Origin: Thermodesulfobacteriota bacterium
GTDB lineage: Bacteria > Desulfobacterota_D > UBA1144 > Nemesobacterales > JAJCZQ01
Direction: 5' to 3'
DNA: 64,000 nucleotides
Assembly (NCBI GenBank): GCA_965215275.1
Contig: OZ244044.1
Location: forward strand, 1,792,001-1,856,000
A program made the position numbers and the translations under genes. Position 1 is the stretch's first letter, and the number at the start of each line of letters is the position of its first letter. Under the pieces are notes generated by a model. That model worked only from the letters and a program-made list of their open reading frames with translations. It searched no databases and was not told the DNA's origin. Positions 42,199 through 43,612 of the stretch are shown here, piece by piece.

Positions 42199-42227
42199 AT
42201 GATATTGTTTTATGGTTCATTTGTCAA
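42199..42227 (-). promoter_or_regulatory. Promoter of the nitroreductase gene
   Basis: TTGACA (42227-42222), 17 nt, TATCAT (42204-42199). Confidence 0.6.
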
Positions 42228-42242
42228 GATGTAAGTAAATTA

Positions 42243-42400
42243 GGGAATTATAAAGGAAAGTTGACAAGTTTACCTTAACTGTTCCGAGTGCAGAGTTCCT
42301 CTATCCCCGATCTCTTTTGATCTGATACTCTTAGCACTCATCGGGAGTATTTCTACCTTATTCCCACCCGATATGAAGTCTCCTTCATCAAGAGTATTGA
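42243..42400 (-). ncRNA. Putative omegaRNA/reRNA scaffold overlapping the tnpB 3' end
   Basis: Nested stems ATACTCTT/AAGAGTAT, ATGAAG-GAGA-CTTCAT and ATCGGG/CCCGAT; potential pseudoknot GAGTGC/GCACTC; boundaries approximate. Confidence 0.6.
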
Positions 42401-43492
42401 TATTTTTACCTGCATTTATGTCCCTGTCTTCTGAATAACCGCAATACATACAGTTAAAAGTCCTGACTGACAGAGGCTGTTTGGGATTTACCTTTCCGCA
42501 TTCAGAACAGGTCCTTGTTGTATAATGAGCTTTAACCAAAACCAGCTTGCCTCCAGCTATCCCGGCTTTGTAAGCAAACTGACGTTTGATCTTGCCCCAT
42601 TGCTGTTCCGTTATGGATTTAGCAAGATGATGGTTCTTTACCATTCCTTGTATATTCAAATCCTCTAATTTTATATGATTACTCTTCTTTACGGTCTCTG
42701 TTGTTAATCTGTGTATAGCATTATTTTCACGATCGGTAGTTCGTTCCCATTCCTTCGCTAACGATAAAACTTTCTTCTTTCTGCTGTCAGAACCTTTTAC
42801 CGCTCTTGAAACAATTCTTTGCTTTCTTTTCAGTTCCTTCCTGTCTATCCTGATACCGGGAATTTTAGTTCCATCTGAAAAAGCTAATCTGTTTGTTATT
42901 CCAAGATCTATTCCTATGGATTTATCCAAAGGTCTCTTCTTCTCATTTGTAAACTCACACAGAAACTGTATCTTTATTCTTAACGAACTCCTGATTATTC
43001 TTATTACAGTTTTAGGTTGCTTTAAAACAACTCCGTCAGGCATACTACCTTTGAAAGATAACCTCCCAGTCCCTTTATCGTTAAATAAGTCCTTCTGCCG
43101 ATCTTTTCAATGTTTTTATAATTGTTTGTTTCAAAACTTCTGACGGGTCTGTTCGGACCTTTATATTTTGGTCTGCCTACCTTTTTTGCTTTCCTGCCAG
43201 CTTTTTTATTCCTTAAATAATTCAGATAGGGACCGTAAGCATTATCCAGCCTTTCCAGAACGCTTCTTTGAGCTACCACGTTAAACTTTTCAAATTCCCT
43301 GTCCTGCTCCCGGACCTCGGTCAGTTCGTTAAACTGCTCGTATTTGGATACGGTTTTTTCATACCAGTCATAAGACCTTAATCTGTGATACAGGGCACCG
43401 TTGTAAAGATCGGTAAGCTGTTGCAGAAATTCATCCAGCCTTTTATGAAATCCACTATCTGCCTTTACAGTTCTTGTAATCGTTCTAACCAT
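42270..43492 (-). pseudogene. tnpB: RNA-guided endonuclease TnpB, split by a 1-nt frameshift near 43062-43077
   Basis: N-half LYNGAL...LERLDNAY...GRPKYK; C-half RuvC IGIDLG / LEDL / DRDINA plus Zn finger CSEC..CMYC; adding one base gives ~407 aa. Confidence 0.9.
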
Positions 43493-43498
43493 ATAATA

Positions 43499-43527
43499 AC
43501 ATTACCTTTTTCTATTCTGTTTGTCAA
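43499..43527 (-). promoter_or_regulatory. Leaderless promoter of tnpB
   Basis: TTGACA (43527-43522), 17 nt, TAATGT (43504-43499), 6 nt, ATG. Confidence 0.65.
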
Positions 43528-43583
43528 TTTTTTCTTGTTAACTTATTTTTGTCAACTTTTCTTTATAATTCCCGTAAATTACA

Positions 43584-43612
43584 TTTACAAAATATATCAG
43601 TTAGTTTAAAAT
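43584..43612 (+). promoter_or_regulatory. Promoter of the thiolase gene
   Basis: TTTACA, 17 nt, TAAAAT; RBS AAGGAG downstream. Confidence 0.6.

Follow-up and report, generated by a model that had tools for sequence, protein, structure and literature searches.

In ISDra2, the omegaRNA of TnpB, a RuvC D-E-D protein, overlaps the tnpB 3′ end. The loop of its stem 1 pairs with the last scaffold bases, and the 5′ strand of stem 2 follows right after stem 1 (PMC10097598). The pseudoknot formed in this way joins positions −5 to −3 with −103 to −105, plus non-canonical −6 and −2, and residue Q80 of the protein bonds the TAM adenine at −2 (PMC10097598). In Fanzor1 and Fanzor2, which occur in eukaryotic TIR transposons, and in the IS607 TnpBs, the scaffold takes in end sequence recognized by the transposase, its boundary is adjusted to the host transposon, and a fixed TSD or flanking base joins the scaffold or the TAM (PMC10711439). 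By cleaving vacant sites, TnpBs of IS605 elements drive the maintenance of the transposon via recombination (10.1101/2023.11.20.567912; 10.1101/2023.03.14.532601).

TIR-flanked TnpBs have already been published. Six DDE-associated branches (DDE-1 to DDE-6) carry TnpB between inverted terminal repeats, with its 3′ end near the transposon end; for solo TnpBs that share these ends, movement in trans was proposed (Altae-Tran 2023, PMC10691335). The text of that paper names IS630, while IS1595 appears once, as a row of a profile list; the sections compared hold no analysis of RNA structure, TAM or TSD for these branches. A 2026 review, which describes the TnpB–DDE pairing as rare, names ISL2, IS630 and IS1031; IS1595 is unmentioned in the parts consulted (PMC13565253).

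Here we describe a tnpB element in a window of 64,000 nucleotides from a Thermodesulfobacteriota genome; its features all lie on the minus strand. The initial annotation had noted an omegaRNA-like tail at the 3′ end of the gene. From the comparative sequence analysis below, we consider it probable that this tail serves as omegaRNA scaffold for a TnpB that is the only cargo between IS1595-type TIRs, with a guide taken from host DNA beginning at the right TSD. The system would share with ISDra2 the RNA overlapping the tnpB 3′ end, the topology of stem 1, stem 2 and the terminal pairing, and a TAM predicted to be read by the same helix position. Unlike ISDra2, its right end is a 25-bp TIR and not an IS605 hairpin end, its 8-bp TSD is variable, a Y1 transposase is absent, stem 2 is crossed by an additional 5′ helix (P1), which makes a second pseudoknot, and a TAM of roughly one base (G or A) is predicted in place of TTGAT. 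The published branches DDE-1 to DDE-6 may include this IS1595-shelled clade. A literature search, largely without subscription papers, found no paper on TnpB in IS1595 ends, and neither the RNA model nor the residue–base link described below was found in the literature searched.

The element, its tnpB gene and its relatives

The element (42243..43573; 1,331 bp) is bounded by a right TIR (42243..42267) and a left TIR (43549..43573) of 25 bp, which differ at one position, and by exactly matching right (42235..42242) and left (43574..43581) copies of an 8-bp TSD. Inside the left TIR, a TTGACA −35-like hexamer starts at 43555 (a consensus match only). The sole gene of the element is tnpB, and no transposase lies inside. 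With its 25-bp TIRs and 8-bp TSD the element falls outside IS200/IS605 and IS607, and the corresponding models NF038281 and NF038280 stayed below cut-off. As in IS1595 insertion sequences, for which an 8-bp TSD is usual (PMC8101967), the TIRs start with GG; unlike these, the element carries tnpB and lacks a transposase. The TIRs of the IS1595 transposase elements in the same genome also start with GG. In that genome, PF12762 gave 28 matches, one of which was tested and was assigned to NF033547 (IS1595). Many of these matches sit between TIRs of the same type, one TIR being nearly identical to that of the window element. We conclude that the window element is an IS1595-type non-autonomous element with tnpB as its sole cargo. 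Its shared ends suggest that the mover is likely an IS1595 transposase encoded elsewhere.

The genome holds eight full copies of this family (family A; 85 to 89% identity to the window copy) and one 326-bp internally deleted copy, along with eight family-B and three family-C tnpB copies having the same end type. The family-A copies fall into three TIR subtypes (G000 C1, 1624687/1834243, 155905/327507/1441464 and 198064/869665/1270922). Each subtype is altered in concert at both ends, and the C-terminal part of tnpB is 84 to 90% identical, which suggests shell swapping or the tracking of different transposases. Two oppositely oriented family-B elements are placed back to back with about 16 bp between them (G000 C1:1616480-1619604). 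The TIR type of the window element also bounds paired non-coding MITEs of about 420 to 445 bp (G000 C1:17470-21955 and 1898058-1900957), the first pair being flanked on the outside by a matching 8-bp repeat, as a composite transposon would be. It also bounds 4.3- to 4.5-kb elements without a transposase (G000 C1:1028600-1033127 and 1496307-1500591), which have single ORFs of 1,065 to 1,183 aa.

In the window copy, tnpB is split into an N-terminal frame (43022..43492; 156 aa), which contains Arg76, and a C-terminal frame (42270..43043; 257 aa) with the RuvC D-E-D residues and the zinc finger. The frameshift lies near 43067, where the gene is one base shorter than its siblings, and an uninterrupted ORF with RuvC D-E-D is thus lacking in this copy. 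Assembly error was rejected as the cause, since 43067 is spanned without a difference by contigs from two studies (runs X1 and X5); contigs of the sibling copies hold one extra base at the break. Six family-A siblings are intact and encode proteins of 404 to 407 aa, and in a seventh the frame is open but lacks the usual ATG. Among the six intact siblings, dN/dS was 0.15 to 0.31 with the RNA-overlapping codons excluded. Sibling protein P0003, from the copy at C1:1270922-1272243, exceeded the cut-off of NF040570, TnpB of the element matched PDB 8bf8 (ISDra2 TnpB) at E 3e-28, and family-A residue 76 aligned with ISDra2 Q80. The RuvC D-E-D triad was retained in 114/114 full-length proteins. Because the window protein is broken, the window RNA would work only with the TnpB of a sibling. 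Standalone omegaRNAs can act in trans (PMC10691335).

Relatives of the same build were found in genus g10 of the same order (23/36 genomes with a protein match). Among the best 80 of 487 matches, the same build occurred, judging by genome titles, in Arenicellales, Pseudomonadales, Paracoccaceae, Binatia, Gemmatimonadota, Rhodothermales and Dehalococcoidia. An IR pair was present at 102 of 122 distinct loci by a loose criterion that also admits a few spurious pairs, and 97 of these 102 elements did not exceed 1.37 kb, which leaves no room for a second gene. An unrelated ORF of 592 aa is present in L132, a copy of 3.4 kb. At IS1595 transposase loci, a TnpB match was found in 0/66 cases. An autonomous element with both a transposase and tnpB was therefore found neither among the 102 IR-bounded elements nor among the 66 transposase loci. 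IS1595-like IR pairs were present at only four of the 81 metagenome and viral loci (L236, L237, L239 and L316); L316, the sole locus on a viral contig, encodes a distant TnpB (26% identity) and has IS1595-like IRs without a matching TSD. A FastTree phylogeny of 60 chosen rows placed families A and B with their relatives in one clade (support 100), and family C with the C-like copies in a separate lineage. These two lineages suggest that IS1595 shells likely captured TnpB at least twice.

The divergent promoter region that separates a nitroreductase-family from a thiolase-family gene is interrupted by the window element (42199-42227 and 43584-43612). In the genomes of two relatives, G001 and G002, these two genes are adjacent and the element is absent from this site. 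The 161-bp gap in G001 contains a single TSD copy, and thus a clean empty site, and shows two differences from the first 16 bases of the predicted guide; in G002, a short additional stretch lies at the insertion site. Both filled junctions of the window element were seen in contigs of three runs (X1, X3 and X5). An empty-site joint was not found in contigs of four runs, which as contigs cannot show absence.

The same insertion site was occupied by diverged element variants in different genomes (L051/L054, L013/L067 and L098/L127), which suggests long persistence or re-homing. At L011, L012, L017, L025, L032, L034 and L036 of genus g10, elements are inserted right where host genes begin, and an in-frame start and a few extra N-terminal residues are lent by the right TIR or by sequence near it (for example, MTIIP before KIAVIG). 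The IS1595 transposase elements L184, L207, L208 and L215, from different genomes, agree almost completely in TSD and right flank (ATGTTT or ACATTT, followed by CACGTG or CACAG), which may point to a preferred target.

Structure and covariation of the predicted right-end RNA

The predicted omegaRNA scaffold, a comparative model, spans 42243..42397. It includes the tnpB stop codon (42272-42270), which is separated from the right TIR (42267-42243) by 2 nt, as the initial annotation had stated. The helices listed there were also confirmed as exact Watson-Crick pairings on the minus strand. These are the 8-bp closing stem (P1; 42397-42390 with 42332-42325), the GAGA hairpin (H1; 42373..42388) and the 6-bp stem (P3; 42372-42367 with 42345-42340). 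Equally exact is the proposed pairing of GAGTGC with GCACTC (P4; 42339-42334 with 42291-42286), and the two further small hairpins can be seen in the sequence (42322-42309 and 42302-42292). Between P4 and the TIR lies a conserved (A/G)GAACAGT motif (42278..42285). Folding of 191 nt of the minus strand gave −43.5 kcal/mol (z −1.37), with 17/200 shuffles as stable, which is not above chance, and Rfam gave no match up to E=1.

We collected 115 right ends and dropped 11 of C type, three that were badly anchored and one for which anchoring failed, leaving 100. A structure-blind MAFFT alignment comprised 35 of the 95 distinct ends, near-copies and the shortest and longest variants being excluded. 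In this alignment, 90.3% of the aligned cells were paired, compared with 71.1±0.9% in shuffles (0/500 as high) and 35 to 57% with slid partners, and double-sided changes occurred at 21/30 pairs. Such changes were present at 7/7 pairs of P1 (85.8% paired), 5/6 pairs of H1 (82.6% paired), the loop of which is variable in relatives, and 6/6 pairs of P4 (99.5% paired). P3, the predicted counterpart of ISDra2 stem 1, was 98.9% paired. Thus, covariation among homologous tnpB 3′ ends, which had been proposed as a check, was found, and in the 35 ends it supports a scaffold of omegaRNA (reRNA) type overlapping the 3′ end of the gene.

A cognate-strand test with 23 subfamily representatives gave the same picture. 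The closing stem reached −8.9 kcal/mol with cognate and −5.6 kcal/mol with non-cognate strands, and P4 reached −10.8 versus −6.4 kcal/mol (0/20000 permutations in each case). The control pairings P1 5′/P4 3′ (2162/20000) and P4 5′/TIR end (2957/20000) showed no cognate preference. Since P1 and P4 cross, the pseudoknot is real. The initial annotation was therefore right that the GAGUGC/GCACUC helix exists and covaries; however, this helix is a pseudoknot only with respect to the extra 5′ closing stem and is not the guide-adjacent one. By analogy, P4 would correspond to ISDra2 stem 2, and P1 would be an added 5′ helix.

A further pairing, absent from that annotation, joins the loop segment GGGAAU (42365-42360) with the TIR end (42248-42243; 86.2% paired). 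We predict that this GGGA(AU)/TIR-end pairing is the guide-adjacent pseudoknot, because its topology matches that of ISDra2; its register matches the ISDra2 pairing as well. At least four terminal pairs are possible in 93/100 ends, and A-U is replaced by G-C in 5/35 rows, plus one C-G change. Double-sided changes are found at only 2/6 pairs, the GGG/CCC core barely varies, the sixth pair fails in 18/35 rows, and the preference for cognate over non-cognate strands is modest (168/20000 permutations). The terminal CCC is also needed by the transposase, which we counted against the evidence for this pseudoknot.

Minimal scaffolds, in which some 68 nt separate the GGGA loop from the end of the element and P4 is reduced to a simple hairpin, occur at L130, L133 and L152 (Binatia) and may be useful as minimal omegaRNAs. 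A search of the genome with the RNA model also returned short or decayed copies that keep the omegaRNA and the right end with little or no tnpB (G000 C1, 1742862-1743187, 1484800, 1886810, 292558, 655970, 494675, 522312, 1790313, 1953596, 1113616 and 1976521). Of these, a 326-bp and an approximately 221-bp copy have both TIRs. The decayed copies are candidate stand-alone guide RNAs.

Guide source and the base beside the left TSD

Two sources of the guide had been considered in the initial annotation, the flanking host DNA and the TIR itself. For the TIR to serve as guide, the scaffold would have to end at TTGTCAA, and the nuclease would target element ends. TTGTCAA resembles IS605 right-end motifs, and the TIR segment has 34 genome matches within two mismatches. 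Nevertheless, TGTCAA stands at the position of the supposed scaffold end in only 33/115 ends, and the TIR end is paired within the scaffold, with the conserved GGGA loop, so that the TIR option is unsupported. Such a guide would moreover lead to cutting at both ends of the element itself, and it fails to account for the biased base outside the element, which varies with the TAM-reading residue (see below). We regard this reading as extremely unlikely.

The guide is likely the host flank, starting at base 1 or 2 of the TSD. This option agrees with the one-sided base bias described below, with the terminal pairing and with the empty site seen in a relative. The predicted guide (42223..42242) would comprise 16 to 20 nt of TSD and host flank, and its end overlaps a host −35-like hexamer at 42227. 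We infer the scaffold/guide junction to ±1 nt: the pseudoknot register puts the guide start at 42242 (TSD base 1), and the Q80 geometry puts it at 42241 (base 2). All right flanks of the own A and B copies start with T (17/17). The asymmetry of TSD base 1 is weak, with p = 0.09 for own A and B and p = 0.03 for C-type copies, and none is clear in 56 others. Elsewhere in the genome, the flank guide has matches with two mismatches only.

A guide that begins in the right TSD requires a TAM 5′ of the left one. In the window this position is occupied by TG (43582..43583), the G at 43582 being the predicted TAM base read by Arg76. G stood 5′ of the left TSD at 59/64 sites, compared with 14/64 on the mirror side. 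In other genomes of the main clade, the count was 51/56 (mirror side, 12/56; unique sites, TSD with at most one mismatch), and in the own family A it was 8/8 (mirror side, 2/8; at most two mismatches, A5 excluded for lack of a TSD). IS1595 elements without tnpB, a control set of the 18/66 transposase loci that had a usable TSD, had G at 3/18 and 3/18 (6/36 sides). In family B, the base was A at 4/4 sites, and in family C at 3/3.

The base corresponded to the residue aligned to ISDra2 Q80. At sites with a matched TSD, Arg went with G in 59/61 cases and Gln with A in 8/8; two Arg sites break the rule, Leu occurred once, with A, and Lys with three G and three A. In the poorer class of rows without a matched TSD, Gln again went with A (8/8), and Arg went with G in 14/26. 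Three held-out metagenome loci, found afterwards, had Arg and G. In the FastTree phylogeny, Gln arises twice inside the Arg clade, in family B and in an Arenicellales subclade, each time with A. Kinship inflates all p-values, and therefore the independent residue switches carry the real support. These are the two switches within the clade and one in an outside lineage with a weaker alignment. Taken together, the sites bear the genomic signature of a variable flank guide with a TAM on the other flank.

A bias of this kind could also arise without TnpB, through a special transposase or through survival at host start codons with a TIR-supplied ATG. Several g10 copies indeed lie at host gene starts and lend an in-frame start; in addition, the control set is small (18 elements), and the actual partner transposase may lie outside it. 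However, 25/51 G sites read GG, CG or AG, of which GG and AG cannot end an ATG, GTG or TTG start, and the window copy sits in a promoter region. The Gln-type copies in the same genome have A, and a dimeric transposase acting on symmetric TIRs predicts a mirrored bias, which is absent. In our view, an origin of the bias independent of TnpB therefore has very little probability.

Proposed retention by TnpB and its implications

We propose the following model, which extends to this family what is known of the IS605 TnpBs. Read-through transcription would yield an RNA with the whole right TIR in its scaffold, where the terminal CCC closes the pseudoknot. A short TAM immediately 5′ of the TSD, G for Arg-type and A for Gln-type proteins, would be recognized by TnpB, which would cut the empty allele. 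The filled allele would escape, because its left junction matches the guide over only 7 to 8 nt and the TAM base is missing at its right junction. Repair from the filled copy would then restore or spread the element. As the transposase itself shows no such bias and would supply no TAM, only insertions beside the right base would be kept, and others would be lost. By our estimate from the odds of the base bias, such a retention filter needs an approximately hundred-fold difference in survival and a supply of empty alleles, for which precise excision or relatives are candidate sources.

Alternatively, the TnpB-RNA complex could bind TAM-containing DNA or the right TIR and thereby direct the IS1595 transposase, the bias then arising at insertion. 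In this reading, residue 76 would recognize a one-base TAM, and the transposase would act in trans. This would fit a bias that is nearly absolute (59/61 and 8/8), while IS1595 elements without tnpB are unbiased, and that follows the TnpB residue across the three family-A TIR subtypes. However, the RuvC triad is intact in 114/114 proteins, which favors cutting; Cas12k, which steers a transposase, is nuclease-dead. No adaptor gene is present either, and no element holds both genes, given that 97/102 measure at most 1.37 kb and 0/66 transposase loci have a TnpB match. Steering is thus unlikely. Another possibility is that the TnpB-RNA complex binds its own left junction without cutting, via the TAM and a 7- to 8-nt TSD seed, and shields the end from the transposase, so that excision is rarer for copies next to the TAM base. 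The TSD automatically gives each filled site a TAM-adjacent seed match, and the bias would be explained without empty alleles. Shielding needs no catalytic residues, yet these are conserved, and stable binding on a seed of 7 to 8 nt is an assumption; we consider it quite improbable. Cutting of the empty allele and retention of the filled one is therefore the reading we prefer.

Like Fanzors and the IS607 TnpBs, the present system would have a scaffold that takes in transposase-recognized end sequence and a boundary adjusted to the host transposon (PMC10711439). Unlike in those systems, the TSD consists of eight variable bases and would therefore be mostly guide, and the transposase supplies no TAM. 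Reviews ask why TnpB seldom pairs with DDE transposases, whose target choice supplies no TAM. In this family, a likely solution would combine a TAM reduced to about one base, the incorporation of the TIR into the scaffold, and the use of the variable TSD as guide seed. Insertion sites that follow a single TnpB residue would be natural evidence that TnpB shapes the persistence of a transposon moved by another enzyme, and they make retention versus targeting directly testable. The model predicts compact nucleases (about 400 aa) with near-minimal TAMs and a one-residue G/A switch. If, on the other hand, steering were true, the family would represent a minimal two-part system for TnpB-directed transposition without Tn7 machinery.
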